Part shown: piece after piece, positions 4,356-22,300 of the stretch
Numbering within the stretch: the first letter of the stretch is position 1
Layout: each line of letters starts with the position of its first letter
The notes under the pieces: model-generated
Databases searched by the model: none
What the model saw: the letters and a program-made list of their open reading frames with translations, nothing else
Told to the model about the DNA's origin: nothing
Program-made: the position numbers and the translations under genes
NCBI GenBank assembly: GCA_965261445.1
Contig: CBDHCW010000010.1
Span: forward strand, 183,995-247,994
Length of the DNA stretch: 64,000 nt
Direction: 5' to 3'
Origin: Dehalococcoidia bacterium
Lineage (GTDB): Bacteria > Chloroflexota > Dehalococcoidia > Lucifugimonadales > QGNO01

Positions 4356-4709
4356 ATGGCCAAGACAGCGAGGTTCGACGGCGGTGCCTTCTTCGCCGCT
4401 CTAGACGCAGAGAGGCAAGCCCGCCATTGCACCTGGAAGCAAGTGGCGGCGGAGTGCGGCATCAGCGCCTCCACCTTGACCCGAATGTCTCAAGGCAGGC
4501 ACCCTGACGTGAATGGTCTCGCGGCGCTGGCTGCGTGGTCAGGGCTGGACATGGACCAGTTCGTCAGGAGCGCCGCCACCAAGGAAGAGCCAGAGCCCTT
4601 GGCCGTGATCTCGTCCTGTCTCCACTCGGACCCGCGCCTCAATGAGGAAGCGGCCATTGCCCTTGACCAGATGGTGAAAGCAGCATACAGGAGCATGACG
4701 AGCCAATGA
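4356..4709 (+). CDS. XRE-family HTH protein (possible controller of the R-M operon)
   Basis: The SD GAAGGAG precedes the ATG at 4356. The HTH reads TWKQVAAECGISASTLTRMSQGRHPDVNGL. Its stop overlaps the hsdM start (ATGA). Confidence 0.75.
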   Translation: MAKTARFDGGAFFAALDAERQARHCTWKQVAAECGISASTLTRMSQGRHPDVNGLAALAAWSGLDMDQFVRSAATKEEPEPLAVISSCLHSDPRLNEEAAIALDQMVKAAYRSMTSQ

Positions 4710-6658
4710 CTAGCCTCAACATCAGCAGTTTCATATGGGGTATCGCGGACGATGTGCTGCGGGATGTATACGTCCGGGGCAAATACCGCGACGTCATCCT
4801 GCCCATGACGGTCATCCGACGCCTTGACGCCGTGCTGGAACCGACCACGGACGCCGTGCTCCACATGAAGGAGCAACTGGACGCCGTCGGCATCACCAAC
4901 CAGGACCAAGCCTTGCGCCAGGCTTCGGGCGAGGCCTTCTACAATGCGTCGCCCTTCCGGCTGCGTGACCTCACCTCCATCGGCCAGCAGCAGAAGCTTC
5001 GAGCCGACTTTGAGGCCTACCTGGACGGCTTCTCGCCAAATGTTCAAGAGGTACTGGACAAGTTCAAGTTCCGCAACCAGATTCCAACGCTGGTGGAGGC
5101 GGACGCGCTGGGGTTCCTGATAGAGAAATTCCTTGATAGCTCAATCAACCTCAGCCCCAAGCCTGTCCCGAACGGGGACGGCTCGGTGCGGCTGGAGGGA
5201 CTGGATAACCATAGCATGGGTACGGTCTTCGAGGAGTTAATCCGACGCTTCAACGAAGAGAACAACGAGGAAGCCGGGGAGCACTTTACACCGAGGGACG
5301 TGGTGCAGCTCATGGCGCGCCTCATCTTCCTGCCCGTCGCTGATGAGATCAGGTCCGGCACTTACTTGGTCTACGACGGCGCTTGCGGCACCGGCGGGAT
5401 GCTGACGGTTGCCGAGGAGACTTTGGCGCGGCTGGCTGATGAACATGATAAGGAAGTGTCTGTCCACCTGTACGGCCAAGAGGTCAATCCAGAGACCTAC
5501 GCCATCAGCAAGGCCGACCTGATCCTCAAGGGAGAAGGGAGCGAGGCCGACAACATCAACTATGGCTCCACTCTCTCTTCTGACGCCTTCCCCGCCAGCG
5601 AGTTCGACTTCATGCTCTCCAACCCGCCCTACGGCAAGAGCTGGAAGACCGACCTTGAGCGCATGGGAGGCAAGTCCGGCATCAAGGACCCCCGCTTCGT
5701 CGTGGAGCACAACGGCAACCCTGACTACTCCCTCATCACTCGCTCCAGCGACGGCCAGCTGATGTTCCTGGCCAACATGCTAAGCAAGATGAAGCACGAC
5801 ACGCCGATGGGCAGCCGCATCACCGAGGTACACAACGGCAGTTCTCTCTTCACTGGCGACGCTGGGCAGGGCGAGAGCAACATACGCCGCTGGATCATTG
5901 AGAACGACTGGTTGGAAGCCATCGTCGCCCTGCCACTGAACATGTTCTACAACACCGGCATCGCCACCTACATCTGGGTGCTCAGCAACCGCAAGGCGGT
6001 GCACCGCCAGGGCAAAGTGCAACTTATCGACGCCACCCAGTGGTACAGACCCCTGCGCAAGAACCTGGGCAGCAAGAACTGCGAGCTTTCTGATGAGGAC
6101 ATACACCGCATCTGCGACGCCTTCCTTGCCTTCGAGGAGACGGAGCAGTCGAAGATATTCCCCAACGAGGCCTTCGGCTACTGGAAGGTCACCGTGGAGC
6201 GGCCCCTGCGCATTGAGGGCATCGACCAGGAGCGCTCCTACACCGCCAAGGAAATCAAGGTGCTGAGGGACGAAGGCAAACGCACGGAGGCTGCGCCACC
6301 GGTCGTCAAGAAGGTCCACAAGGGAGTGGAAGCCGACCCGCTGCGCGGCCTGTTCCCCGGCACATGCAAGGGCGAGCCCGCCGTAGTGGAGTACGAGCCG
6401 GACACCGACCTCCGGGACACCGAGCAGGTGCCGCTTCTGGAAGAAGGTGGCATTGAGGCCTTCCTGCGCCGCGAGGTGATTCCCTACGCCCCGGACGCCT
6501 GGTACGTCCCCGACAGCGTCAAGGTGGGCTACGAGATCAGCTTCACCCGCCACTTCTACAAGCCGCAGCCGTTGCGCCCCTTGGAGGAGATACGGGCTGA
6601 CATACTGGCACTGGAGCGGGATACGGAGGGGTTAATGGCGGAGATTGTGGGAGGATGA
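4706..6658 (+). CDS. hsdM: Type I restriction-modification system, methyltransferase subunit
   Basis: The N-terminal HsdM domain reads FIWGIADDVLRDVY..DVILPMTVIRRLD. The SAM motif is VYDGACGTGGML and the catalytic motif is LSNPPYGKSW. Confidence 0.95.
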   Translation: MTSLNISSFIWGIADDVLRDVYVRGKYRDVILPMTVIRRLDAVLEPTTDAVLHMKEQLDAVGITNQDQALRQASGEAFYNASPFRLRDLTSIGQQQKLRADFEAYLDGFSPNVQEVLDKFKFRNQIPTLVEADALGFLIEKFLDSSINLSPKPVPNGDGSVRLEGLDNHSMGTVFEELIRRFNEENNEEAGEHFTPRDVVQLMARLIFLPVADEIRSGTYLVYDGACGTGGMLTVAEETLARLADEHDKEVSVHLYGQEVNPETYAISKADLILKGEGSEADNINYGSTLSSDAFPASEFDFMLSNPPYGKSWKTDLERMGGKSGIKDPRFVVEHNGNPDYSLITRSSDGQLMFLANMLSKMKHDTPMGSRITEVHNGSSLFTGDAGQGESNIRRWIIENDWLEAIVALPLNMFYNTGIATYIWVLSNRKAVHRQGKVQLIDATQWYRPLRKNLGSKNCELSDEDIHRICDAFLAFEETEQSKIFPNEAFGYWKVTVERPLRIEGIDQERSYTAKEIKVLRDEGKRTEAAPPVVKKVHKGVEADPLRGLFPGTCKGEPAVVEYEPDTDLRDTEQVPLLEEGGIEAFLRREVIPYAPDAWYVPDSVKVGYEISFTRHFYKPQPLRPLEEIRADILALERDTEGLMAEIVGG

Positions 6659-6664
6659 CTCACG

Positions 6665-8113
6665 ATGGTTAGACAACCGAATACACCACTAGACGCGCAG
6701 AAGTCGATCACACTCAAGCTCAGCGAGCCAGTGATTAACTCGGAAAATCCATGGGCCGACGACCTCCTTGCCAGACAGCAGATTGCCACACGGCTCACGA
6801 ACCTTGTTGCCACCCAAGAGCCGCCGCTGACCATCAGCCTCCATGGGCAATGGGGAACAGGCAAGACCTTCATGCTCAAGCGCTGGCAGAAAGACTTGGA
6901 AGGTACGGGCTTCAAGGCTATCTACTTCAACGCGTGGGAAGACGATTTTTGTGACGACCCTCTCCTTGCGATACTCGGTCAGATGACAGAGACTTTCAAG
7001 GAAGGCAGCCTCAAAACACTAACTCAAAAGATAGTTACAACTGCAGTGACGCTATTCAAGAGGAATGCACTGAGCGTTTTGTCCAATAAGATCGGGATAA
7101 CGCTTGATACTGAGCAAAATGAGAGAGATCTCTTAAAGGAGTACTTCAACGAAAGAGCGACAAAGGATGAATTGAAAGAACACCTAGCGAAATTGTCAGC
7201 AGCAGTAAGCCATGAAACCAAACATCCCCTAGTCTTCATTATCGACGAGCTAGACAGATGCCGCCCAAGTTTTGCGATTGAGCTTCTGGAAAGGGTCAAG
7301 CACATATTCGATGTTCCGCACATGGTGTTCGTCTTTGGTCTCAACCGAGATGAACTTTCCAAGTCATTGTCTTCAGTCTATGGTGATATCAACACGGACG
7401 TTTACCTTCGACGCTTCTTCGACTTTGAGCTCAATCTCCCGGAGGCGGACTCTCGTGGCTTTGCCACACAGTTGATCGATAGGTTTCAAATTGCTGACGT
7501 CTTCCAACAACTTGCTGAGGCTGCCCGTGACCGAGCGCCCCTTCACGACTACGATAACTACAGAACAGTCTTCCCGAAGCTATGGGCCGCCTTGGGGCTT
7601 TCTCTTCGGGACATTGATTACGGCATCCGATTGCTTGCTCTTCTAGCAAAGAATGTCCCCGTCGGGGCCTTCACCCATCCGTTCTTACTCGCTGTTCTCA
7701 TAGCAATGAAGTTCAAGAAGCCTGAATTCTATCGTTCGTTGATATCAGGAAACTTTCGGACGAGCGAGATTATGGACTATATCGATGACGAAGCATCAAG
7801 GCGAACTTCGACCGATGAAGCTCTCTCTCGTCACTTGGATAGGATTGAGGGCTTCCTCTACTGCGCTGATATAACAAACCGTGACGACCAAAGGCGCGGC
7901 GAGAATGCCCGTACGGAGCTCTTGAGATTGTCGCAGGGCGATGTGGAATTTGGGTTTCAAATTGTCTCTCGCCGGGCGCAGAGTGCGGATCCAGAACATT
8001 ATTCACGGATTATTCAGGCGATTGAAGTTGGCGATGGACTAGGGATTACCGGCGATACATTCGGTGATTTGGCGACACTCATTGATGCATACCAGATGCA
8101 ATTGAGACGTTAG
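6665..8113 (+). CDS. KAP-family P-loop NTPase
   Basis: Walker A is LHGQWGTGKTFML and the KAP-type Walker B is LVFIIDELDRCRP. The gene starts 7 nt after hsdM and ends 10 nt before hsdS. It is visibly more A/T-rich than its neighbours. Confidence 0.85.
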   Translation: MVRQPNTPLDAQKSITLKLSEPVINSENPWADDLLARQQIATRLTNLVATQEPPLTISLHGQWGTGKTFMLKRWQKDLEGTGFKAIYFNAWEDDFCDDPLLAILGQMTETFKEGSLKTLTQKIVTTAVTLFKRNALSVLSNKIGITLDTEQNERDLLKEYFNERATKDELKEHLAKLSAAVSHETKHPLVFIIDELDRCRPSFAIELLERVKHIFDVPHMVFVFGLNRDELSKSLSSVYGDINTDVYLRRFFDFELNLPEADSRGFATQLIDRFQIADVFQQLAEAARDRAPLHDYDNYRTVFPKLWAALGLSLRDIDYGIRLLALLAKNVPVGAFTHPFLLAVLIAMKFKKPEFYRSLISGNFRTSEIMDYIDDEASRRTSTDEALSRHLDRIEGFLYCADITNRDDQRRGENARTELLRLSQGDVEFGFQIVSRRAQSADPEHYSRIIQAIEVGDGLGITGDTFGDLATLIDAYQMQLRR

Positions 8114-8122
8114 GAGTCAACC

Positions 8123-9433
8123 TTGAGCACCACGCCCCAATCCTATCCCGCCTACAAGCCCTCCGGCGTCCCCTGGCTCGGCGACGTGCCGGCCCACTGG
8201 GAAGTACGACGACTTAGGTCGGTTGCCGATGTGATCAACGGTGCCACGCCTTCCACCAACGTCCCTAACTATTGGGACGGCCACATCCTGTGGGTCACCC
8301 CAGATGACCTGGGTAGACTAAGGAGTCGTTACGTCACTGACAGCGCACGTCAAATAACGGAAGAAGGCTATAGATCGTGTGGCACTAGCATGGCACCAGC
8401 CAACAGCCTAGCAGTCTCGACGCGCGCGCCTATTGGCCACTTGGGAATCTTGCAGTCAGAGGGCTGTGTAAATCAGGGTTGTCGGCTACTGATACCGGGT
8501 GCTTCCATTCAGGTTGAGTACCTGCACTATACTCTCAGCACCGGCCGCTCTGACCTCGCGTCTCTGGGACGGGGCAGTACCTTTACAGAGTTGTCGCGTA
8601 CGCAGTTGAGTGCATTCCGATTCCCTCTCCCACCGCTCCCCGAACAGCGCGCCATCGTGCGGTACCTGGACTACGTGGACCGACGCATCCGGCGGTACGT
8701 CGCCGCCAAGCGGAAGCTCATGGCACTGCTGGAGGAGGAGAAGCAGGCCATCGTCAACCAGGCCGTAACCCGCGGTCTGGACCCCAACGTCCGCCTCAAG
8801 CCCTCCGGAGTCGAATGGCTCGGCGACGTGCCGGAGCATTGGGAAGTGCGACGGTTACGGTCACTCGCAAGTATTGGAACAGGTGGACGGGATACGATCA
8901 ACCGGGAGGATGACGGTCAGTATCCTTTCTTCGTGCGATCTCAATCCGTCGAGAGGATAAACACGTGGTCTTTTGATGGTGAGGCGGTGTTGACGGCTGG
9001 AGATGGAGTGGGTGTGGGCAAGGTGTTCCATTACGTCAACGGGATGTTCGACTACCACCAGCGTGTTTACAAGTTCAGCAACTTTAGACACATTGCAGGG
9101 AAGTACTTCTTCCACTACTTCAGGTCTACGCTACGCAATGAGGTCTTTCAAGGAACAGCGAAATCCACCGTAGACTCTTTGCGGCTTCCCATGTTGCAGA
9201 ACTTTCCAGTCGCTTTTCCACCCCTTCTGGAACAACATGCCATCGTCGAGAACCTTGAAGATACAACCGCCAGCGTAGACCCCGCCATCACCCGCGCCCG
9301 ACGCCAGATTGAGTTGATCGAGGAATACCGCACCCGGCTCATCGCGGACGTGGTGACGGGCAAGCTGGACGTGCGAGAGCAGGCGGCGCCTCCAGAGAGT
9401 CCCGCTGAGTGCAACGAGGGGAACTTACAGTGA
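8123..9433 (+). CDS. hsdS: Type I restriction-modification system, specificity subunit
   Basis: The start is TTG. There are two variable TRDs, each preceded by KPSGV(P/E)WLGDVP(A/E)HWEVRRLRS and followed by conserved helices (LPPLPEQRAIVRYLD and FPPLLEQHAIVENLE). Confidence 0.9.
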   Translation: MSTTPQSYPAYKPSGVPWLGDVPAHWEVRRLRSVADVINGATPSTNVPNYWDGHILWVTPDDLGRLRSRYVTDSARQITEEGYRSCGTSMAPANSLAVSTRAPIGHLGILQSEGCVNQGCRLLIPGASIQVEYLHYTLSTGRSDLASLGRGSTFTELSRTQLSAFRFPLPPLPEQRAIVRYLDYVDRRIRRYVAAKRKLMALLEEEKQAIVNQAVTRGLDPNVRLKPSGVEWLGDVPEHWEVRRLRSLASIGTGGRDTINREDDGQYPFFVRSQSVERINTWSFDGEAVLTAGDGVGVGKVFHYVNGMFDYHQRVYKFSNFRHIAGKYFFHYFRSTLRNEVFQGTAKSTVDSLRLPMLQNFPVAFPPLLEQHAIVENLEDTTASVDPAITRARRQIELIEEYRTRLIADVVTGKLDVREQAAPPESPAECNEGNLQ

Positions 9434-10110
9434 TAGACATAGATTCTGTTGATGAGCGCAGACGAAACGGAACGTTGCGGCCTGAAGTGGCTCACATCTT
9501 AGAGTTGGTTGAGCTCCCCCGACACATTCCTGACATATGTAGGATCGCAGAACGCCTTGCTTTAGGTGACAAGTCTGTCATCGACGATCTAACCGTTATT
9601 GACAGAACAATTCCCGGACTGGGCTTCGTAGACATCAACGAGCGAACTCCTAGTGGTTCCTATACTGGTGTGTATCAAATTTCAGACAGACCGATCTTCA
9701 GAGGAATCCAATACGTGGGGATGCATTTGGGCATGAACAACATTGAGTGGCTTTGTCGAACCATAGTTGAGGATTCTTGTTACCACCTTGAAAACAGTCT
9801 AAAGCGCCGATTGAGTATTCGTGAGGACCAGCATTGGTCCGTAGGTGTAATCTTGAACACTCCGCAGGGCAAGCGGCTAAATGGATCGTTGCGAAAGCCA
9901 TTAATCGTATTGAACCGAGCGGTGTATAACAGGGCGAAGCATACCATTGAGATGATTGATCTCAACTCGCATATGTTCTCAGCCGCGGACGCGATCGCCA
10001 TCTATTTGTGCTGTCGTGCGATGGGTGCGAAACTAATCGGTAAGTTGGGCCTCAAAACGAACTATGGAATCCCAATATTCCCAGAGATGGAACCTGATGC
10101 GGAGACGTAG
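9430..10110 (+). CDS. hypothetical protein with possible HEPN/DUF4145-like R-x3-N-x3-H motif
   Basis: The GTG start overlaps the hsdS stop (GTGA); an alternative GTG is at 9409. The motif is LNRAVYNRAKHTIE. The gene is A/T-rich relative to hsdS and hsdR. Confidence 0.5.
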   Translation: MIDIDSVDERRRNGTLRPEVAHILELVELPRHIPDICRIAERLALGDKSVIDDLTVIDRTIPGLGFVDINERTPSGSYTGVYQISDRPIFRGIQYVGMHLGMNNIEWLCRTIVEDSCYHLENSLKRRLSIREDQHWSVGVILNTPQGKRLNGSLRKPLIVLNRAVYNRAKHTIEMIDLNSHMFSAADAIAIYLCCRAMGAKLIGKLGLKTNYGIPIFPEMEPDAET

Positions 10111-10140
10111 GACGTCAGCAACCGAAAGAGAGGTGACCGT

Positions 10141-10389
10141 ATGACGGACTGGAGCAAGTGCCCGGCGGTTGAGAGCGTGCCCGGCAAGGTAAGCGGGGCC
10201 TGGGTGTTCAAGGACACGCGGTTGCCGGTGTCTGCCCTTTTCGGCAACCTTGCGGAGGGCGCAACTGTCCACGACTTCATCGAGTGGTTCGGCGGCGTGG
10301 ACGAAGCGCAGGTGCGGGCGGTCTTGGAGTTCGTAGTGCAAGACCTTGACGCCAAGGTCGCTAAGGTCTCGCATGCGACTTCTGTTTGA
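10141..10389 (+). CDS. DUF433-family protein (antitoxin-like)
   Basis: PGKVSGAWVFKDTRLPVSALFGNLAEGATVHDFIEWF matches the DUF433 pattern (GxP...GTRxPV...L..G.s...i). It is paired with the downstream PIN-like gene. Confidence 0.8.
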   Translation: MTDWSKCPAVESVPGKVSGAWVFKDTRLPVSALFGNLAEGATVHDFIEWFGGVDEAQVRAVLEFVVQDLDAKVAKVSHATSV

Positions 10390-10708
10390 CCACAATGCGC
10401 CCCGGCAGCTTCGCCCTCACCTCGTCGGTCACGATGTTGACGTGGCGGAAGAGCGCGGGTGGGCGACGCTTGTCAATGGTGAATTGCTGGACCGGGCGGA
10501 AGAAGCAGGGTATGAAGTCGTGATTACTGCGGACAGGAACATGCCATATCAGCAGAACATCGGGAGCCGAAGCCTCGCGCTGATCGTTCTCGGGGCGAAC
10601 CGGTGGCCGCTCATCGAGCCAAGGATCGAGGATATTCGCGCCGCCCTGGATGAGATCCAGCCCGGAGAAGTGCGGGAAGTCCACATCCCGATGAGAGGCG
10701 AGACATAG
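10373..10708 (+). CDS. DUF5615-family (PIN/Mut7-C-like) protein (toxin-like)
   Basis: MRLLFDHNAPRQL...VVITADRNMPYQQN is typical of the DUF5615 partners of DUF433. The ATG at 10373 overlaps the DUF433 gene by 17 nt. Confidence 0.75.
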   Translation: MRLLFDHNAPRQLRPHLVGHDVDVAEERGWATLVNGELLDRAEEAGYEVVITADRNMPYQQNIGSRSLALIVLGANRWPLIEPRIEDIRAALDEIQPGEVREVHIPMRGET

Positions 10709-10709
10709 C

Positions 10710-13700
10710 GTGACCACCGACACCAGCGAGAAAGGGCTTGAGCGCCTCATCTGCGAAGCGCTAACAGGCGCTGCCTGCGATCCGCCGCAGGCTGGTGCGG
10801 TCTATGAGCGGCCGGCAGAGTACGGCGTGGGCTGGATATGCGGAGACCCTCAGGACTACCACCGGGAGTACTGCGTAGACCTGACGCAGCTATCCGCCTT
10901 CTTGCGAGCCACCCAGCCCGTAGCCGCTGAATCGCTTGGCCTAGACGAGGACGGCCCGACCCGGCGCAGATTCCTGGCTCGGCTGCAAGGTGAGATAACC
11001 AAGCGCGGCACTATAGAAGTGCTTCGCAAGGGGATCAAGCACGGGCCACACCAGATCGACCTGATGTACGGCACTCCGTCGCCGGGCAACGAGAAGGCTA
11101 GGGTTCTATACGGGCAGAACCGCTTCAGTGTGACCCGTCAGCTCCGCTACAGCAACGACAACGCGCAGCTTGCCCTGGACCTGTGCCTGTTCATCAACGG
11201 CCTGCCCGTCGCCACCTTCGAGTTGAAGAACAGCCTGACTAAGCAAACGGTGGATGACGCCGTAGAGCAGTATAAGCGGGACCGCAACCCCAGGGAGAAA
11301 CTCTTCGAGCTTGGCCGCTGCCTCGCCCATTTCGCCGTGGACGACCACGAGGTGCAGTTCTGCACGCATCTCAAGGGCAAGGCGTCATGGTTCCTGCCCT
11401 TCAACAAGGGATGGGACGACGGCGCGGGCAACCCGCCTAACCCCAATGGCCTCAAGACCGACTACCTGTGGAAGCAGGTGCTCACCCGCGACGGTCTCAC
11501 CAACATCATCGAGAACTATGCCCAGATCGTGGATACGAGGGACGACAAGACCGGACGCAAGAGGCGAGAGCAGATATGGCCCCGCCACCACCAACTGGAC
11601 GTGGTGCGCAGGCTGCTGGCCGATGCTTCCGGTAAGGGAGTCGGCTCCAGGTACCTGATTCAGCACTCGGCGGGAAGCGGCAAGTCCAACTCCATCGCCT
11701 GGCTGGCCCATCAGCTGATAGGACTGAAGCGGGACGATGCGACTATCTTCGACACCGTGATCGTGGTCACGGACCGCAGGGTGCTGGACAGGCAGATACG
11801 GGACACCATCAGGCAGGTCGCCCAGGTCGGCTCTGTCGTGGGTTACGCCGAGACCTCCGGCCACCTGCGTCGGCTGCTCCAGGAGGGCAAGCGTATAGTC
11901 ATCACCACGGTGCAGAAGTTCCCCTTCATCCTGGACGCCATCGGCAACGAGCACCGGGTCCGCAGGTTCGCCGTCGTCATAGACGAGGCCCATTCGAGCC
12001 AGGGCGGGCGGACGTCGGCGTCGGTGTCCATGGCTCTGGGAGAAGCGGGCGCTGAGGAAGAGGACGAGACCACCGAGGACAAGGTCAACCGGCTTATGGA
12101 GTCCAGGAAGCTACTGTCCAATGCCAGCTACTTCGCCTTCACCGCCACGCCTAAGAACAAGACCTTGGAGATATTCGGCACACCCGTTCCTGAAGGCGAG
12201 AATACGAAACACGTGCCCTTCCACTCCTACACCATGAAGCAGGCCATCCAGGAGCGGTTCATTGTCGACGTTCTGAAAGACTACACACCGGCGAACAGCT
12301 ACTACCGGTTGGTGAAGACGGTTGAGGGAGACCCGGAGTTCGACATGAAACGGGCAGGGAAGAAGCTGCGCCGCTACGTGGAGGACCACGACCACGCCAT
12401 CCGGCTGAAGGCGGAGATCATGGTCGACCACTTCCACGAGCAGGTGGCCGGCCTGCAGAAGATAGGCGGGCAGGCGCGGGCCATGGTAGTGACGAGCAGC
12501 ATCCGACGGGCCATCAGCTACTACTACGCCATTCGGGACTACCTGACGGAGCGCAAGAGCCCATATCAGGCCATCGCTGCCTTCTCCGGCGAGCACGAGT
12601 ACGATGGGACTAAAGTCACGGAGGCGTCCCTCAATGGCTTCTCGTCCAACCTGATCACCGACAGGATCCAGGAGAATCCGTACCGCTTCCTGGTCTGCGC
12701 CGACAAGTTCCAGACCGGCTACGACGAGCCGTTGCTGCACACGATGTACGTGGACAAGCCGTTGTCGGGAGTGAAGGCGGTGCAGACGCTCTCCCGTCTC
12801 AACCGGGCACACCCCAAGAAGCATGACGCCTTCGTGCTGGACTTCGCCAACGACACCGACACAATCCAGACCGCTTTCTACCCATACTACCGAACCACCA
12901 TTCTCTCGGAGGAGACCGACCCTGACAGGCTGCACGACCTAACAGCGGCTCTGGACGGCTATCAAATCTATGACCCGACCCAGATTTACGAACTCGTAGA
13001 GCGTTATCTTTCGGGATACGACCGCGACCGGCTCGACCCAATATTGGACGCCTGTGTCTCGGTCTACCGTGACCAATTGGACGAGGACGGCCAGGTCGAC
13101 TTCAAGGGCAAGGCGAAGGCATTCCTCCGGGCCTACGGGTTCCTAGCCACTATCTTGCCCTACACTGTTGCTGAGTGGGAGAAGCTCTCCATTTTCTTGA
13201 CCTTCCTCGTTCCCAAACTTCCCGCTCCCGTCGAGGACGACCTGTCGAAGGGGATTCTCGAAGCTATCGATATGGACAGCTACCGGGTGGAGAAGCAGGC
13301 TGTGCAGGACATCCAGCTTCCCGACGAAGATGCGGCGATAGGGCCGGTTCCCACCGATGGCGGAGGACAGAAAGCGGAACCAGAGATGGACCGACTCTCC
13401 AATATCATCAGGGACTTCAACGACCGGTTTGGCAACATCGAGTGGAAGGACCAAGACAAGATCGAGAAGGTGATTGCCGAGGAACTGCCCGCGAAGGTGG
13501 CTGGAGACAGGGCCTACCAGAACGCAATGGCGAACTCCGACCCGCAGAACGCCCGGATCGAGCACGACAAGGCCTTGGAACGGGCCATGGCAGACTATGT
13601 GGCCGACCCCATCGAGCTATTCAAGCAGTTCAGCGACAACGAGTCTTTCCGCCGGTGGCTTTCCGAGAGGGTCTTCGCCGCCACGTACTTGACACCTGCC

Positions 13701-13721
13701 ACACCTACGGTTGGCCAATAG
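10710..13721 (+). CDS. hsdR: Type I restriction-modification system, restriction (helicase-nuclease) subunit
   Basis: The GTG start is 1 nt after the upstream stop. The N-terminal nuclease core is DLCLFINGLPVATFELKN. The SF2 motifs are HSAGSGKSN, VIDEAHSSQ, FTATP and QTLSRLNR. Confidence 0.95.
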   Translation: MTTDTSEKGLERLICEALTGAACDPPQAGAVYERPAEYGVGWICGDPQDYHREYCVDLTQLSAFLRATQPVAAESLGLDEDGPTRRRFLARLQGEITKRGTIEVLRKGIKHGPHQIDLMYGTPSPGNEKARVLYGQNRFSVTRQLRYSNDNAQLALDLCLFINGLPVATFELKNSLTKQTVDDAVEQYKRDRNPREKLFELGRCLAHFAVDDHEVQFCTHLKGKASWFLPFNKGWDDGAGNPPNPNGLKTDYLWKQVLTRDGLTNIIENYAQIVDTRDDKTGRKRREQIWPRHHQLDVVRRLLADASGKGVGSRYLIQHSAGSGKSNSIAWLAHQLIGLKRDDATIFDTVIVVTDRRVLDRQIRDTIRQVAQVGSVVGYAETSGHLRRLLQEGKRIVITTVQKFPFILDAIGNEHRVRRFAVVIDEAHSSQGGRTSASVSMALGEAGAEEEDETTEDKVNRLMESRKLLSNASYFAFTATPKNKTLEIFGTPVPEGENTKHVPFHSYTMKQAIQERFIVDVLKDYTPANSYYRLVKTVEGDPEFDMKRAGKKLRRYVEDHDHAIRLKAEIMVDHFHEQVAGLQKIGGQARAMVVTSSIRRAISYYYAIRDYLTERKSPYQAIAAFSGEHEYDGTKVTEASLNGFSSNLITDRIQENPYRFLVCADKFQTGYDEPLLHTMYVDKPLSGVKAVQTLSRLNRAHPKKHDAFVLDFANDTDTIQTAFYPYYRTTILSEETDPDRLHDLTAALDGYQIYDPTQIYELVERYLSGYDRDRLDPILDACVSVYRDQLDEDGQVDFKGKAKAFLRAYGFLATILPYTVAEWEKLSIFLTFLVPKLPAPVEDDLSKGILEAIDMDSYRVEKQAVQDIQLPDEDAAIGPVPTDGGGQKAEPEMDRLSNIIRDFNDRFGNIEWKDQDKIEKVIAEELPAKVAGDRAYQNAMANSDPQNARIEHDKALERAMADYVADPIELFKQFSDNESFRRWLSERVFAATYLTPATPTVGQ

Positions 13722-13785
13722 ATAAGAGACATGGCCACCCCTTGCGGATGAACGGGGCTTCGGGTGGAGCGGGGAGTACGGCCGA

Positions 13786-13944
13786 TTACACCGCCAGAGC
13801 GAACCTCAACACCAGGGTTCTTGATTTTGTCAAGTTAGGTGGACAGCGGCGCAGACCCTGCAATTGAGGGTTGGCGGTGAGACTGCATGCGACAATACCG
13901 GCGGAAACGACTACCAGGGCGGCTGTCTGCCGGCGGTGTCTCAT
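13786..13944 (-). CDS. possible 52-aa signal/lipoprotein-like peptide
   Basis: Its ATG overlaps the TGA of the Cys-rich ORF (ATGA). MRHRRQTAALVVVSAGIVAC resembles a lipobox signal. The equivalent frame after the second Cys-rich copy is not conserved beyond ~13 aa. Confidence 0.2.
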   Translation of the reverse strand: MRHRRQTAALVVVSAGIVACSLTANPQLQGLRRCPPNLTKSRTLVLRFALAV

Positions 13945-14167
13945 ACGCTGCATCCACAGGCGCAGGGCGGTAGGGCCCTGACTCGCAGGCGGCGTTCGCG
14001 CAGCTGGTCGCAGCTGAGACAGGCACAAGAATCCTGTTTGTGCTGGGCGGACTCTGCCAGCTCATCGAGTGCCAGGAAGTAGCCTTGAGCGGCGCGTTCG
14101 CACGGCTCGCACTCGTCAACACCACAGGGGAAATCATGCTTGTTGGCCATAGGTCACTCTCCTGGCT
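13912..14167. repeat. copy A of a ~255-bp direct repeat (carries Cys-rich ORF A plus its RBS)
   Basis: It aligns base-for-base with 19111-19366 at an offset of 5199 bp. I counted 16 substitutions inside the 210-nt coding part. Confidence 0.85.
13941..14150 (-). CDS. Cys-rich small protein (C-x4-C-x2-C ... C-x-C-x2-C ... C-x-C-x-C), paralog A
   Basis: The protein is 69 aa with 9 Cys, and the SD AGGAGAG lies upstream. Compared with paralog B, 10 codons differ synonymously and 5 non-synonymously, and every Cys is conserved. Confidence 0.6.
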   Translation of the reverse strand: MANKHDFPCGVDECEPCERAAQGYFLALDELAESAQHKQDSCACLSCDQLRERRLRVRALPPCACGCSV

Positions 14168-14314
14168 GCCATCATGGTGATACAATTCAACTGTTCATGG
14201 CCCACCACCCCTCGCCCATGAAGTACTGGACTGAGGATTCGACCGTCTGTTGCGACCTGAGCGGCGTTTGCTCTCCTTGCGTCTGATGTCTCCTCGCTAC
14301 AAGTTGAGATCCCT

Positions 14315-15214
14315 CTATCTGGCGCTCCTCATCAGTCCGCCGTCCCTGAGCTGCCCCGTTAAGACAATCCAAAGGCAGAGAACTCCCAACGGGACCCATC
14401 CGAGGATGCCAACATAGCTCACAAAGAGCCAGTTTGGCCCACCCCAAAAGAGCAACAGCGTCAGGCTCGCGCCTGTGGTGTTCGTGGCTGAATGTCCCAG
14501 ACTTGCGGCCCAGATGCTTCCCGTCCTCACGCGGAGCCATCCAAAGATGATGGACAGCATGATCGCGCTGACTGCGAAGACCAGCATGCCAAGCATGGGC
14601 TGGTCAGGGAAGTTGTAGCCTCGTAGGTAAATTGGAAGGTGCCACAGTGCCCATATGATGCCTGTCACAACGGCGGCCCACAGCGGTCGATCACCCATTA
14701 AACGGACTTGGAGGTAACCACGCCAGCCGAATTCTTCACCCCACAGGATGGGGGTGACCACCAACGCTGCGATCATCATCTGTAACGGCAGAATGGCGAA
14801 GAGACCTGGAGGAAGAGAGGGGATCGTAACCCCCTCTGGTGCCAGTTCCGTCAGAGCACGGTCCAGGGTAAGATCTGGCTCGCTTACCCCCAGAGCTGCG
14901 GCTAGAAGTACAATCACCAATACTGCCGCGAGGGGCAAGCACCACCCGGCAAGGTAGTAGCGCCATCGCTCTATGTTCAACCCCAGTCCTGCATCCGCAA
15001 ACCCCTCCTGAGTCACCCACTTTCTCACGACAACAGCAGCAAGGGCTGGCGAAAGGGCTCCAGGTAGAATGGCGAGTTGAAACAGAGGACTATCGGGCGA
15101 CGGGCCCACCAGCAGGGCAATCTCCCAGAGCACCCAGGCCAGTCCGAAGGCGATCAGAAGGTATACGGCCACGCCCCTCTTGTTGGTATCCAACACCAAA
15201 GCCCCTACTGACAT
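14315..15214 (-). CDS. CPBP-family (CAAX/Abi) intramembrane glutamic protease
   Basis: It is a multi-TM protein with the motifs EEFGWRGYL, ALWHLP and HSATN. Its ATG overlaps the ATPase stop (TGATG); the ORF-track TTG start is at 15217. Confidence 0.85.
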   Translation of the reverse strand: MSVGALVLDTNKRGVAVYLLIAFGLAWVLWEIALLVGPSPDSPLFQLAILPGALSPALAAVVVRKWVTQEGFADAGLGLNIERWRYYLAGWCLPLAAVLVIVLLAAALGVSEPDLTLDRALTELAPEGVTIPSLPPGLFAILPLQMMIAALVVTPILWGEEFGWRGYLQVRLMGDRPLWAAVVTGIIWALWHLPIYLRGYNFPDQPMLGMLVFAVSAIMLSIIFGWLRVRTGSIWAASLGHSATNTTGASLTLLLFWGGPNWLFVSYVGILGWVPLGVLCLWIVLTGQLRDGGLMRSAR

Positions 15215-16911
15215 CAATCGTGCTGTTGTGCCAAGTAGCAGTCTTCTAACGGGGCCGCTGGTTGGACACCAAGGGCAATGGATAGCGGCCCAACACGTTG
15301 CCTCAGCTTTTCGGCGAGTTCCGCATCGGACTGGATCCGGGCAATGAGCGTCTGCTCATATAGGTTTCTTTTCTTAAAATCCAGTGCATGCGCGACTTCA
15401 GCAAGGACGCCACTCTCTCTGAGTGGATAACGGGCCAGCAGTTGGTCTAGGTCCCCGGCTTCCACTAGCTCTCTGAATGTCGCCAACTCTTCCTGGAAGG
15501 GAGATGTGACGGAGATTTTGATGTCTGTCTGGCCATCGTCCTTGATTGTCTCCCAGTTGGGAGCCTGCGAGACGATCCAATTCCTCACCACCTGCTCGCA
15601 GCGCCTGGCAGCCATCCTTTCGGCCAGTCCATCCTCTGCCAGGGCAGCGAAGGCCGCGTCTAGTGCTGGCTGCATCATGGAGCCTAACTCTCGTCCTAGC
15701 GACTCTTCCTGACGGCGGGCCACGGCATCCAGTGATTCGGAACAGTAGTAGAGCGACTCAACAGAGAAAGCATCGAGCACGAATACGCCACGATTGCGGA
15801 GGGTGTCCACTGCTTCTTGGTCTCGACCATCACCGTCAATCAATCCAAATGCCTCTACGTGGTGGAGGTGATATGAGCCTTGAATACCTTCAACGGCTCT
15901 CTGGACATCGGTGCTTCCGCCACTAGCCACGACGGAGACATCCGGAAACAGGGAGTTGTAGATCGGTGAGTCCAAGCTCGTCGCAGTCCCTTCAAGAAAG
16001 AGGACTTTGCGCCGCGAGCCCAAAATCGCCTGGCGTAACTCCTCTGGCATCTGGTCATTGGATTCGAGTAGGTCGATGTCCCAGGTGCTGGCCCTGTTGT
16101 TCTGCCATTCGCATGACCGAACCATTACGACTCCTGCAGCAGGGTTTGAGGCGGGTAGGGCCAGCTCATGCGTGGAAATGACGAACGTGCAGTCCGCGCG
16201 CCTGGCAAACACGGCCGCTAGGAAAGGGACGATTATGGATCGATGGAGGTGTCTCTCCGGTTCGTCAATCAGCAGTACGGTGCCGGGTTCGACGGTGAGC
16301 ACGGTCGCCCCAATTATTGCGGCGTTCCGTTCTCCATCTGACATCTGGGCGATACTGTAGGAAGCGTTCGCGTTTCGATGCTTCGCAATGATCTCCTCAT
16401 CGTTTGAGTTCTCCAGGGCAATTAAGAGTGTTCCCAAGGCCAGCAGGTCATTGAGTTCTGTGAATGCTGATACGGACTCTGCGGCGCGGTGTGCAGCCCC
16501 TTCCAAGTCCTTGCTGTCCACGAAACCCGTGATCGAACGTGCACGCGTGTTGTCCTTGGCTACTAGGTCGAAGAGTACCGCCGATTGCTTCCTCTCAGCG
16601 TTGTATTCTTGCCATAGAGACTCGTAGTTCCTCTCAGTGTCTGTATCCTCTTCCCCGAACTCTTTACGGCCTAGCGGAGTGAGGTCGAGGCTGCCAGAGC
16701 CTAGCCATGTTTGTCTGTGGGCTGAAATGCGCCGAATGTTCCGACCCTGGTGCGACGAAATGAGGTGTTGAATCAGGGCTGACTTTCCAGAACCATTAGG
16801 ACCCACTACAAAGAGGCATTCACCCCGGTTGAGGGATACGTGCAAGGGTTCCTGAGCAGTGCGAGGGATACCCCACTCCAAGCTTGGACCCAGATTGGCG
16901 GTTGTATCCAT
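15214..16911 (-). CDS. fused ABC-type ATPase / DUF4435 Toprim protein (OLD-family, PARIS AriA-AriB-like)
   Basis: The start is ATG 16911, with the SD GGGGGAGGA. The ATPase motifs are Walker A GPNGSGKS, signature-like MSDGERN, Walker B LLIDEPERHLH and ISTHE. The C-terminal half carries KVLFLEGTATSLD, VVASGGSTDV and FGLIDGDGRD (Toprim E...DxD). The ORF-track start at 17088 adds a non-protein-like N-terminus. Confidence 0.85.
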   Translation of the reverse strand: MDTTANLGPSLEWGIPRTAQEPLHVSLNRGECLFVVGPNGSGKSALIQHLISSHQGRNIRRISAHRQTWLGSGSLDLTPLGRKEFGEEDTDTERNYESLWQEYNAERKQSAVLFDLVAKDNTRARSITGFVDSKDLEGAAHRAAESVSAFTELNDLLALGTLLIALENSNDEEIIAKHRNANASYSIAQMSDGERNAAIIGATVLTVEPGTVLLIDEPERHLHRSIIVPFLAAVFARRADCTFVISTHELALPASNPAAGVVMVRSCEWQNNRASTWDIDLLESNDQMPEELRQAILGSRRKVLFLEGTATSLDSPIYNSLFPDVSVVASGGSTDVQRAVEGIQGSYHLHHVEAFGLIDGDGRDQEAVDTLRNRGVFVLDAFSVESLYYCSESLDAVARRQEESLGRELGSMMQPALDAAFAALAEDGLAERMAARRCEQVVRNWIVSQAPNWETIKDDGQTDIKISVTSPFQEELATFRELVEAGDLDQLLARYPLRESGVLAEVAHALDFKKRNLYEQTLIARIQSDAELAEKLRQRVGPLSIALGVQPAAPLEDCYLAQQHD

Positions 16912-17465
16912 AAGTCCTCCCCCTGCGTTGGAATGAGCCACTCTGCACCCGCCTTCGGCGAGGCCATTTCCGGGTGCCCTTGCATCATGTGTCCGAGCTG
17001 CTCGTCGGTGAGCCTGACCTCGTTTCCATGCGCGTCGGTGAAACGGCGCACGTCGGCCCCCATCACCAGATACCGTACCGTAAAGCATACCACGCTAGGG
17101 CATAGCAGCAGCTCGGCGGCGCTCTACAGCTTCCGATTCTGGGCTATCCTGGGAGTTGGGATTCAGGGGCATCTGGGGGAGAGTGTGTGTCAGCCGCCTG
17201 TCTGATTCTGGGCTCTCCAGGTGTATCAGCGCCGGCTCCAAGATTTGTCGGACACTGTCGCACAGTGGTCGGACAGATCTCCGAGCTAGAAGGCGATTTC
17301 AGGGTTTCAGGCACGAATGGGGTGAACTTGGCTCAGAAAAGACGCGCCAGGATTCCGATTCTACGGCGTTTTCGGGGGCCCCAGGCGCTCAGCACCAGCA
17401 GGGCAGCTCCACCGATGACGCGCCACAGTGAGGTGGCATAGATGAATAGGGCACTTCCTAGTGCC

Positions 17466-17756
17466 TCAGGGTGTCTCGGATGGCTCGTCCAAGAGGTTCT
17501 TGCTACGAAGAATCTCTATGTACGAGTTCCGATTTAACCTACAACTGATCGCTTCTTGCAATTGGTTGGCGTTCAACTTCAACTGTTGTCGGATGCTGTG
17601 AAACATCGGAAGGTCACCATTAGATTTGTAGGAGCGCCGTGTCCGGACGACCACCTTATCGTTAATAACGAGCCATGCAAGGAGGTCTTTGCTATTCCTA
17701 GTCTCGAAACCGAACTTGCTGACCAGACTGTCAAACTCATGCGCGGTTAGCGGCAT
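17466..17756 (-). CDS. YcfA/HicA-like small protein (toxin-like; catalytic His not evident)
   Basis: The ORF starts at the internal ATG (MPLTAHEFDSLVSKFGFETR...VVVRTRRSYKSNGDLP..IRQQLKL), which follows the HicA-like pattern. It overlaps the upstream gene by 20 nt. Confidence 0.4.
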   Translation of the reverse strand: MPLTAHEFDSLVSKFGFETRNSKDLLAWLVINDKVVVRTRRSYKSNGDLPMFHSIRQQLKLNANQLQEAISCRLNRNSYIEILRSKNLLDEPSETP

Positions 17757-18167: not shown

Positions 18168-18641
18168 TTAGCCTCCTTGCTGTTGAACTACCCTTATGGA
18201 TGTCGAGCCCAGAAACATAGAGTTTGCCCATATCTGGAACTCGTACATACCCTGAACAGGTATTGGTAAAGGCGGAAATGGAAGGTGTATTTCGAATGAA
18301 CCGTGGTTCCTTGCTGTCAATTCGCCTTCAGCATTTGCAAGAACTTGACCTGTAGCGACTTGGACATAACGAACGTCGAATCTGTAGTAACCTTCTGCAT
18401 CCACCATCTTAAGGTATAAAGAGATTGGCTGCTCTGCGGGGAACTTCCGTGCGTGCATCGTATCGAAGATACCAATGAGGCTATTCTTGCCCGTACTTCG
18501 ATCTGAGACGGCAGCATCACATACTAGAGCCGCCACCAAGAGCGGCACTACCTCACTGAGTGGTTGATCCTTAGCTTGCGACAAGACTACCCTCTTTTCA
18601 CCCAACCGACGACATCTTACTAACATTGTCGCAAATTTCAA
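18168..18641 (-). CDS. hypothetical protein
   Basis: The ORF is 157 codons and the start is uncertain. I recognised no motif. It is the first large gene of the three-gene module ending with the HicA-like ORF. Confidence 0.45.
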   Translation of the reverse strand: MKFATMLVRCRRLGEKRVVLSQAKDQPLSEVVPLLVAALVCDAAVSDRSTGKNSLIGIFDTMHARKFPAEQPISLYLKMVDAEGYYRFDVRYVQVATGQVLANAEGELTARNHGSFEIHLPFPPLPIPVQGMYEFQIWANSMFLGSTSIRVVQQQGG

Positions 18642-20275: not shown

Positions 20276-20974
20276 CTAGAGTGCATAGAATAGAATGCTC
20301 TCGAGGTCTCTGTCGTCGTTGTCGTCCCCAGCGATTTCGGCACGTGTCCAGGTTTCCCCGTAGCGCGCCCACACCTTTCGGTCGGGGTCGGGGGGAGGCA
20401 GTGGGAGAAGACCATCGTAATCGTTCCACACCCTCTCAATGCTCTTGTAACCGAGATCCACCACCTTAGCGACCGCATCACAAGCAGAATATTCTGGTTC
20501 AGTCGCACTGTTACGAGTTGGATTTATGCCTACCTTAGCACGAAGGAAACCCACCATTGCGCCCAACAAAGAGTCCCTCCAGGCAGTGGAGTGGCCCTTT
20601 GCCGGATTGCCTTCTATCTGATCGGCCACCAACCACTGCGCTAGAAAGTCCGGGACTTTCCCTTCCCGTCGCAGATAGCGGGCGATCGCCCACAATACAT
20701 CCCTCACTCTCTTATTGTTCTCAGACTCGGCAATCTTCCGGTCCAGCCATGCGTGGCCAAACCTCAGCTTATCCCAGACATTCTTGTATTCCTCCGGCCA
20801 GTCTTCCCCATTCAACAGCCATGGGGAGGCTGAGCGCTTGTAATCATTCAGGAGAATATCAACATGATTGTCGATCCACCCAACGCCGAATGCAGAATCG
20901 AGTATCCGTTTCAACTCTTTAGCGAGGCGCTCGGCCTCTTCGTATTGTTCCTCCCTATTCAACATTGCCCCCAC
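20276..20974 (-). CDS. hypothetical protein
   Basis: The ORF is 232 codons and overlaps the integrase stop by 20 nt. I recognised no motif. Confidence 0.55.
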   Translation of the reverse strand: MGAMLNREEQYEEAERLAKELKRILDSAFGVGWIDNHVDILLNDYKRSASPWLLNGEDWPEEYKNVWDKLRFGHAWLDRKIAESENNKRVRDVLWAIARYLRREGKVPDFLAQWLVADQIEGNPAKGHSTAWRDSLLGAMVGFLRAKVGINPTRNSATEPEYSACDAVAKVVDLGYKSIERVWNDYDGLLPLPPPDPDRKVWARYGETWTRAEIAGDDNDDRDLESILFYAL

Positions 20975-22142: not shown

Positions 22143-22154
22143 CTGCGAACCCCC

Positions 22155-22186
22155 ATTTTGTACATTTATTTTGTACATTTTGTACA
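22155..22186. promoter_or_regulatory. three direct ATTTTGTACA repeats upstream of int
   Basis: The copies are at 22155-22164, 22168-22177 and 22177-22186. Each contains the palindromic hexamer TGTACA. They lie 13-44 nt upstream of the int ATG. Confidence 0.35.
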
Positions 22187-22300
22187 AGATTATGGGAGTA
22201 TCGAGCGGAATTGTCAAGACGTCAGAAGCCTCTATTCTGTGTCTACGTTAGCCTTGCACGTGTCCAATTCTGAGGAATGCAAGGCCATATAATTGCGGGA

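Follow-up and report, generated by a model that had tools for sequence, protein, structure and literature searches.

A probable single-polypeptide PARIS gene next to a Type I restriction-modification operon, and an apparently unrelated CPBP protease gene placed behind it by rearrangement

Our analysis of a 64,000-nucleotide stretch of Dehalococcoidia DNA (the window) suggests, on the strength of sequence comparison, that it very probably carries one stand-alone fused PARIS gene and, directly behind it, an unrelated CPBP gene that was put there by a rearrangement. The original prediction had taken the two for a two-gene defence module made of an ATPase-Toprim protein and a membrane protease. 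This proposal had to be abandoned, because synteny between the two genes was missing when surveyed from either side, their junction has the features of a breakpoint, and the CPBP protein matched none of the PADLOC defence models. The features discussed here are listed in Table 1.

Table 1. Positions of the features in the window, with strand and the properties or evidence that define them
Feature	Position	Strand	Properties or evidence
Type I R-M operon (context)	4706..13721	plus	convergent with CPBP/ariAB; Pfam, PADLOC
hsdM	4706-6658	plus	Pfam
KAP NTPase embedded in R-M operon	6665-8113	plus	PADLOC candidate PDC-S20
hsdS	8123-9433	plus	Pfam
DUF5615 gene in R-M operon	10346-10708	plus	Pfam
hsdR	10710-13721	plus	Pfam
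CPBP (Rce1-like) intramembrane glutamic endopeptidase, predicted	14315..15214	minus	299 aa (ATG 15214) or 292 aa (TTG 15193)
Rearrangement junction	15214..15234	minus	blastn end-points, alignment, C-termini compared
Fused ariAB (predicted single-polypeptide PARIS, AAA_21 + DUF4435 type)	15214..16911	minus	565 aa, intact ORF
DUF4435/Toprim nuclease core, predicted	15709..16005	minus	residues 303-401; E307, D359-x-D361
ABC/OLD-type ATPase domain, predicted	16159..16812	minus	residues 34-251; Walker A K43, MSDGERN, Walker B D216/E217, H-loop H248
Relic of two genes preceding ariAB in closest relatives	16926..17066	minus	blastn, pairwise alignment, translations, relatives' gene tables

Judging by its domains, the large gene encodes a typical fused AriA-AriB protein of PARIS, an anti-phage system already known. 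It starts with the ATG at 16911, preceded by the Shine-Dalgarno sequence GGGGGAGGA, and ends with the TGA at 15216-15214 of the minus strand; pairwise alignment with relatives shows that the Shine-Dalgarno sequence and the start codon are conserved. A 624-aa ORF opening at 17088 was considered and discarded, its N-terminal extension being the upstream relic read out of frame; relatives use the same ATG at 16911, and the 565-aa form is the one in the public collection (P0241). Within the ORF we found the motifs GPNGSGKS, MSDGERN, LLIDEPERHLH, ISTHE, FLEGTATSLD, ASGGSTDV and LIDGDGRD, and all motifs originally quoted for this gene and for the CPBP gene are indeed present in the translations. Pfam searches returned AAA_21 above its curated cut-off (54.9 bits, 1.9e-14, residues 34-251), ABC_tran (8.7e-9), and DUF4435 with 38.5 bits against a cut-off of 27 (1.5e-9, residues 303-401). 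The published domain thresholds for PARIS, which are at least 27 bits for AAA_21 (or at least 32 for AAA_15) and at least 27 bits for DUF4435 (PMC9122126), are thus passed within one polypeptide. The PADLOC profile for the fused protein, AriAB PDLC02982, matched at 8.9e-59 and 197.6 bits in two stretches, the better of which runs over profile positions 207-559 of 570 and protein residues 178-539; the AriB model PDLC02983 (6.6e-9) and the AriA model also matched, as did PHROG 25246 over its full length (3.6e-52). Homologues of similar length (about 560 aa) number more than 2900. Across 193 homologues, K43, D216, E217 and H248 vary little or not at all, E307, D359 and D361 are invariant, and the window copy has kept all of these residues. 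The proposed ATPase-Toprim/DUF4435 fusion of the PARIS/OLD kind was therefore borne out by Pfam, PADLOC and the fold search described below, and the profile searches that had been suggested placed AAA_21, DUF4435 and Rce1-like/CPBP all above the Pfam curated cut-offs, with the PADLOC AriAB, AriA and AriB models matching the large gene.

The original prediction also mentioned fused forms of PARIS, and the literature agrees (PMC9122126, PMC11464382). Fused AriA-AriB was described by Rousset et al. in 2022 (PMC9122126) and noted again by Burman et al. in 2024 (PMC11464382), and the window protein has the same domains in the same order, an AAA_21-type ATPase followed by DUF4435/Toprim, matches the fused profile over most of its length with the catalytic residues conserved, and is likewise encoded in a defence island beside a Type I R-M operon. 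It differs in belonging to an uncharacterised clade and in having lost the HTH_17 gene found upstream in its closest relatives. Because single-gene PARIS fusions have already been described, the window gene adds another example rather than a new type.

The region upstream of ariAB shows where this copy came from: it is the remnant of a mobile module composed of a PBECR2-like gene, a DUF2283+HTH_17 gene and ariAB. The relic joins 34 N-terminal codons of the PBECR2-like gene to 10 codons (KAGAEWLIPT) from the DUF2283+HTH_17 gene; compared with L081, a close relative, about 630 bp have been lost here. Both genes are conserved upstream of ariAB in 6/6 closest relatives, the DUF2283+HTH_17 gene lying 12 nt away, and these six are often found on conjugative-type elements, without R-M. 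The clade as a whole comes from uncultured Chloroflexota-type and other metagenome-assembled genomes, mostly sponge-associated.

With both of these genes deleted and the native stop codon gone, it is conceivable that ariAB in the window is a decaying remnant, non-functional or attenuated after the loss of its DUF2283+HTH_17 partner, which we regard as unlikely, if by no means negligible. The substitutions give this reading some weight, since the window lineage has accumulated 14 non-synonymous changes and 3 synonymous ones, a ratio that rejects an omega of 0.2 (P = 0.00025) and fits an omega of 1, even though such counts are too small to tell relaxation from positive selection. Three of the changes, L315S, R344Q and A378V, fall on columns conserved among the 193 homologues, and with such an excess of amino-acid changes the gene may no longer be fully functional. 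Against decay, however, the ORF is intact through 565 codons with every catalytic residue kept, the ribosome-binding site and start codon are conserved, and 13 of the 14 changes are clustered within residues 306-526 (P = 0.0006), unlike what uniform neutral decay would leave. The clustered changes could equally reflect adaptation of the nuclease or C-terminal half. It is a remote possibility that this burst is an adaptation to losing the DUF2283+HTH_17 gene, which in that case would serve this PARIS clade as its dedicated regulator.

A second alternative is that the large protein is an OLD-family or Gabija-type DNA nuclease and not a PARIS-type tRNA nuclease. An AlphaFold2 (AF2) model built from 71 sequences reached a pLDDT of 83, and its best fold matches in the PDB were the Thermus OLD nuclease 6P74 (E = 3.7e-8) and Gabija GajA, which likewise combine an ABC ATPase and a Toprim domain in a single chain, although TM-scores were low (about 0.3) for every match. 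This model replaced a first one made from 14 sequences, whose pLDDT of 56 made its fold search unreliable. The ranking of folds is, moreover, biased, since PDB structures have AriA and AriB on two different chains. We find an OLD or Gabija identity quite improbable, as Pfam assigns the C-terminal half to DUF4435, the family of AriB; PADLOC places AriAB far above other models, with AriA and AriB also matching and no GajA model among the 25 best matches; and no GajB-like UvrD-type helicase gene is adjacent to ariAB. PDB sequence searches with the whole protein, the 14-sequence profile and the C-terminal half returned generic ABC-ATPase matches, with AriB absent, and AriA 8UX9 reached at best E = 0.007, by profile, a value uninformative for PARIS membership.

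If the large gene does encode a fused PARIS, its mode of action can be sketched by analogy with the very distant two-gene system of E. coli B185, in which an AriA6:AriB3 complex releases AriB when triggered by Ocr, and tRNA-Lys is cleaved (PMC11464382). The two systems have in common an ATPase and a DUF4435 Toprim nuclease, the Walker A lysine, a Toprim glutamate equivalent to AriB E26, and an anti-anti-restriction logic in keeping with nearby R-M genes; they differ in that the E. coli system uses two polypeptides and the window protein one, with sequence similarity too low for phmmer to detect against the PDB chains. Following this analogy, ATP-dependent sensing of an anti-restriction protein from a phage, or of some comparable trigger, would fall to the ATPase half; the Toprim half, once activated, would cut host tRNA, leading to a stop in translation and abortive infection. 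With both halves covalently linked in one chain, activation would have to proceed by conformational change or oligomerisation, and not by release of AriB. To our knowledge, no fused PARIS has been studied mechanistically, and a cultivable or heterologously expressed representative could reveal how the nuclease is activated without dissociation. The remaining value of the locus is modest, and resides in its belonging to a large uncharacterised clade of single-polypeptide PARIS that spans many phyla, mostly in sponge-associated bacteria.

The location of the gene pair, placed by the original prediction about 600 bp from a Type I R-M operon, proved correct, as hsdR ends at 13721 and is convergent with the pair. 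An association with R-M also holds for the AriAB family in general: the homologue is found near R-M methylase or specificity genes in about 30 of 80 related genomes, and many of these R-M-associated homologues are found directly 3' of such a gene, on the same strand. A link between R-M and OLD-ABC/Toprim (PARIS-like) proteins has already been published (PMC12839542), and such proteins are among the 'guardian' systems covered in a review (PMC12707154). Compared with the R-M- and BREX-embedded OLD-ABC/Toprim modules (PMC12839542), the window gene stands convergent with hsdR and outside the operon.

At the other end of ariAB, its junction with the CPBP gene is a rearrangement breakpoint. The window is 96.5% identical to L081 from 16924 to 15234 by blastn, and the match stops within the ariAB stop codon of L081; on the other side, the match to a 93% relative of the CPBP gene spans 15214-14310 only, that is, from the CPBP start. 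Since homology to AriAB ends in the stop codon and homology to CPBP begins at the start of that gene, the breakpoint is about 20 nt wide, and we saw no homology running through both genes. The stop codon of the relatives, TAG, reads TTG in the window, adding 6 residues to the protein (…PLEDC|YLAQQHD*). The copy has been stripped of both upstream genes and of its original 3' flank, with its stop codon replaced at the breakpoint. We saw no direct or inverted repeats on either side of the CPBP gene, and hence no hint of an IS, MITE or integron cassette; homology to the CPBP relatives stops 5 nt past the stop codon, hence without a shared attC-like element, and no tRNA gene marking an integration site is present in the window. 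A search of JGI metagenomes for the junction sequence gave no match.

Translational coupling of the two genes, as originally proposed, comes with a caveat. The overlap itself is there, as the CPBP ATG at 15214 overlaps the ariAB TGA by 1 nt (TGATG), but this ATG is shared only with the one 93% relative and is not the usual start of the family, which by consensus is the TTG at 15193, 20 nt past the ariAB stop. The N-terminal family consensus MDxxxKG and the 292-aa collection copy P0121 both correspond to this TTG. A promoter and terminator scan of 13600-17600 gave no excess over shuffled sequences, with no terminator seen between the two genes and no promoter-like site 5' of CPBP on its strand. 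Following ariAB so closely, CPBP lacks the space for a separate promoter, and the two genes are therefore probably co-transcribed here, by accident.

The CPBP gene is a clear member of the CPBP/Rce1-like endopeptidases. PF02517 matched with 67.8 bits against a cut-off of 22.4 (1e-18), and the NCBIfam CPBP models matched too. The ORF carries EEFGWRGY, ALWHLP and HSATN, so that the EExxxR, FxxxH-type and HxxxN motif sets are all present, and residues E160, E161, R165, H192, H241 and N245 are invariant in an alignment of 21 family members. A dN/dS of 0.19-0.21 against relatives indicates purifying selection. The former label of PF02517, 'Abi', is as far as is known historical and not a sign of abortive infection. 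The CPBP protein matched no PADLOC defence model, a full-text literature search turned up no paper connecting CPBP with PARIS, and its relatives sit in unrelated genomic contexts with no conserved neighbour, which agrees with a stand-alone accessory gene outside the PARIS system. No close relative was found on viral contigs, and exact look-ups of P0121 and P0126 returned no match.

The synteny surveys address whether the two genes belong together. A CPBP gene was sought around AriAB loci with phmmer --max, a motif scan, a CPBP-family HMM and the gene tables, and one was present within about 6 kb in 0/86 loci, made up of 0/80 genome loci (37-76% identity) and 0/6 closest ones (76-94%), in surveys that reach at most 6 kb per side and include many short metagenome contigs. 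An 'EEPGWRA' ORF in L045 was examined as a possible CPBP and discarded as a non-membrane, spurious GC-rich ORF. Conversely, AriAB was found in 0/85 CPBP-family loci, where at least 1 kb of upstream DNA was available in 49 and at least 2 kb in 34. The conserved CPBP partner that the original prediction expected near homologues of the large gene is thus not syntenic with it.

In this one organism, the adjacency, common strand and gap of -1 to 20 nt do make co-expression and some functional interplay possible. An accidental unit might have been co-opted, CPBP expression depending on ariAB transcription and the protease either modulating the fused PARIS or taking a later step, be it that of a membrane effector or of self-immunity; if so, we would be looking at a two-gene defence operon just as it arises, which we hold to be very improbable. 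That AriAB and CPBP form a genuine module, the protease being a translationally coupled co-effector, regulator or immunity factor, is hardly tenable in spite of the common strand, the stop/start overlap, the lack of a terminator between the genes and of a promoter-like site before CPBP, the purifying selection on CPBP and the position of certain CPBP relatives near defence or mobile genes such as TIR, GmrSD, SIR2_2 and a prophage, given that synteny is missing both ways, that the breakpoint falls inside the ariAB stop codon of relatives, that the consensus CPBP start lies downstream of the overlap, that CPBP has no PADLOC match, that the full-text search gave no paper on CPBP with PARIS and that the junction sequence had no match in JGI metagenomes, and as a conserved system the combination is, going by these comparisons, already refuted. 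Recognising a fused PARIS gene with an unrelated CPBP gene behind it mainly averts a false lead, and illustrates that the closeness of two genes, even where they overlap, can be an artefact of recent rearrangement, a single neighbourhood being no evidence for a system.

The 565-residue AriAB protein carries all the ATPase and Toprim motifs named in the original prediction, and its domain interpretation was borne out by Pfam and PADLOC profiles. Matches above the Pfam curated cut-offs were to AAA_21 (54.9 bits, residues 34-251), DUF4435 (38.5 bits, residues 303-401) and also ABC_tran; the published thresholds for detecting PARIS domains are at least 27 bits for both AAA_21 and DUF4435 (Rousset et al. 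2022, PMC9122126). The PADLOC fused-PARIS profile 'AriAB' (PDLC02982) gave 8.9e-59 (197.6 bits), hits came from the stand-alone AriA and AriB models too, and none of the 25 best PADLOC matches was a GajA model. A phage protein family, phrog_25246, also covers residues 33-532 (3.6e-52), and over 2900 homologues of about 560 residues are present in the public protein collection. K43 (Walker A), D216/E217 (Walker B), H248, and the Toprim residues E307 and D359-x-D361 show no or almost no variation across 193 aligned homologues, and the window copy retains every one of them. The AlphaFold model (built from 71 sequences, pLDDT 83) has as its best solved matches 6P74, the OLD nuclease of Thermus, and GajA of the Gabija system, both of which combine ATPase and Toprim in a single chain; differing domain orientations keep the TM-scores low. 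Searching the PDB by sequence barely picked up AriA and missed AriB. AriAB is thus a new member of the fused PARIS proteins, a form already described (Rousset et al. 2022) and also noted by Burman et al. 2024 (PMC11464382).

Features of the ariAB region and the related loci, with coordinates
Feature	Coordinates	Strand	Remarks
ariAB	16911-15214	-	ATG at 16911 preceded by GGGGGAGGA; stop TGA at 15216-15214
CPBP gene	15214-14315	-	299 aa from ATG at 15214; alternative start TTG at 15193
Type I R-M operon	4706-13721		convergent with CPBP gene; contains a DUF5615 gene
KAP-family P-loop NTPase	6665-8113	+	between hsdM and hsdS; PADLOC candidate PDC-S20, 5.4e-100
hsdS-hsdR interval	9409-10708	+	233-aa ORF without family match, 82-aa ORF, DUF5615 gene
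Relic	16926-17066	-	34 codons of PBECR2-like gene joined to 10 codons (KAGAEWLIPT) of HTH_17 gene
Listed with relic for DUF2283+HTH_17/PBECR2-like observation	L081 4003-4724; L082 6680-7419
21-nt direct repeat	17132-17152; 17201-17221		86% identical, 69 nt apart, just upstream of PBECR2-like relic
DUF6941 protein gene	18168-18641	-	7.7e-16
Tyrosine integrase	20955-22217	-	Arm-DNA-bind_3/Phage_int_M/Phage_integrase; 4 kb upstream of ariAB
DDE_Tnp_1_4 transposase	24283-25608	+	84% DNA identity to L081 1551-3148
R-M-adjacent loci (examples among L003-L064)	L035 4748-6010/6001-7629; L053 4768-6000/6001-7620; L022 1943-5707/6001-7623

The gene directly behind ariAB also contains the CPBP motifs named in the original prediction, and its product, with a Rce1-like/CPBP match of 67.8 bits (above the Pfam curated cut-off) and a concurring NCBIfam assignment, is an intramembrane glutamic endopeptidase. 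Its ATG overlaps the ariAB stop by one base in a TGATG string, an overlap that only the window and L084, the locus of the 93% CPBP relative, possess among CPBP relatives; the consensus MDxxxKG at the N-terminus of the family points to the TTG as the start, as in the collection's 292-residue copy (P0121). Because neither start leaves room for a separate CPBP promoter, the two genes are likely co-transcribed in the window.

The proposal that the two genes form a defence module is refuted, on the criterion that the original prediction itself set, by the lack of synteny in relatives, examined both ways. Scanning one genome per species yielded 80 loci with ariAB homologues of 37-76% identity, most of them from MAGs (Dehalococcoidia, Poribacteria, Caldilineaceae, Latescibacterota, Binatia and others), and within flanks of 6 kb where the contig allowed, none of the 80 yielded a CPBP ORF, whether to phmmer in its most sensitive mode, to motif scanning or to an HMM of the CPBP family. 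At 83 ariAB loci, Pfam matches of the nearest same-strand ORF downstream did not include CPBP among the 25 commonest families; TPR families, from TIR-TPR proteins, were the commonest. Neither the gene tables of the five closest relatives (proteins P0001, P0002 and P0003, at 94%, 86% and 85% identity, with P0244 and P0243; loci L081-L083, L088 and L089) nor an ORF and phmmer scan that included L001 (76%) showed a CPBP gene. Reciprocally, a metagenome scan added 80 CPBP-family loci, 85 in total, with an AriAB homologue in none (upstream sequence of at least 1 kb in 49 and at least 2 kb in 34) and no conserved neighbour of the family. The closest CPBP relatives, at 93%, 85%, 82% and 81% identity, each stand alone in a different setting; among their neighbours are HicB and a prophage, TIR and GmrSD with a giant cadherin-like protein, metabolic genes, and SIR2_2 with transposases. 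The CPBP protein matched no PADLOC model, and a full-text literature search returned no paper tying CPBP to PARIS or any defence system.

At the DNA level, the CPBP gene is 83-94% identical to its relatives in L084-L087 and L090 over the ORF only, with both flanks different in every genome and several of them of mobile or defence character (prophage portal/terminase, TIR, GmrSD, SIR2_2, transposases). It appears to move, or to occupy highly variable regions, without recognisable repeats.

The junction itself can be placed closely. Window positions 16924-15234 align to L081 at 96.5% DNA identity, ending within the L081 stop codon, whose TAG is TTG in the window, making AriAB six residues longer; homology to L084 covers 15214-14310 only, that is, the ORF and five bases. 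The joint between the two genes is therefore a breakpoint of about 20 nt. Neither flank is common to the relatives, the CPBP gene has no repeats on either side, and the junction was not found elsewhere in JGI metagenomes. The arrangement is recent and unique.

On the other, upstream side of ariAB, each of the six closest relatives has a gene of 141-148 residues with DUF2283 and HTH_17 whose end is 12 nt from ariAB; it may be a dedicated regulator of its PARIS clade. This pair lies within a conjugative-type element in L082 and L083, both with a TrwB-like coupling protein, Replic_Relax, a PBECR2-like gene and an RHH gene, together with a serine recombinase in L082 and a TraC-like ATPase in L083. 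In the window only the relic precedes ariAB, and downstream of it the ariAB Shine-Dalgarno and start are both conserved. The window ariAB is what is left of a mobile module. The clade-specific DUF2283+HTH_17 partner remains of interest; the gene is also kept upstream of ariAB outside a conjugative-element context, in L088. The counterpart of the window's transposase gene lies on the contig of L081, the closest AriAB relative, and the window as a whole has no tRNA gene. The DUF6941 gene and several ORFs without family match, located between ariAB and the integrase, are probably cargo of the same island.

Polarised with L082, L083 and L001 as outgroups, amino-acid and synonymous changes numbered 14 and 3 in the window lineage, 4 and 2 in L081, and 1 and 1 in L088. 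An omega of 0.2, the value for the family as a whole, is rejected by the window counts (P = 0.00025), which are compatible with omega = 1, and 13 of the 14 replacements fall within residues 306-526, the Toprim/C-terminal half (P = 0.0006). L315S, R344Q and A378V are at conserved columns, and the catalytic residues are untouched. This excess may reflect relaxation, attenuation or adaptation.

While the architecture, intact catalytic residues, profile membership and rearrangement history of ariAB are direct observations, its mechanism would follow that of E. coli PARIS (PMC11464382). The ATPase half would sense a small acidic phage protein in an ATP-dependent manner and activate the Toprim nuclease, which would cleave host tRNA and arrest translation; because the nuclease cannot dissociate from the fusion, activation would be intramolecular or through oligomerisation. 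Nothing links the CPBP protein to these steps.

The anti-anti-restriction setting originally proposed does fit the fused-PARIS family. N6_Mtase/Methylase_S genes are near the ariAB homologue in 18 of the 80 loci, and in about 14 of those 18 a methylase or specificity gene ends at, or a few bases from, the ariAB start; 14 of the 80 form a cluster in which Eco57I-type methylases lie upstream, TIR-TPR proteins downstream, or both, and hsdR is nearby in seven, plus the window. Such a setting is already published for PARIS (PMC9122126; PMC12707154), as is recruitment of PARIS-like modules to BREX and R-M operons (PMC12839542), and what remains of interest is that symbiont genomes contain a large clade of fused PARIS proteins embedded among R-M genes. 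Within the window operon, the 82-aa ORF and DUF5615 gene may make up a small pair of toxin-antitoxin-like genes. In roughly 30 of the 80 genomes the family has R-M methylase or specificity genes in its neighbourhood: fused PARIS often comes immediately after a same-strand Type I hsdS/hsdM or Eco57I-type methylase gene, in some cases separates hsdS from hsdR, and in Poribacteria is followed by TIR-TPR proteins. Homologues of 45-76% identity (L001-L080) are spread across Dehalococcoidia, Poribacteria, Caldilineaceae, Latescibacterota, Binatia, Nitrospirales, Alphaproteobacteria and Acidobacteriota; the names of several isolates point to sponge-metagenome bins, and such a multi-phylum distribution would be consistent with horizontal transfer inside a single habitat.
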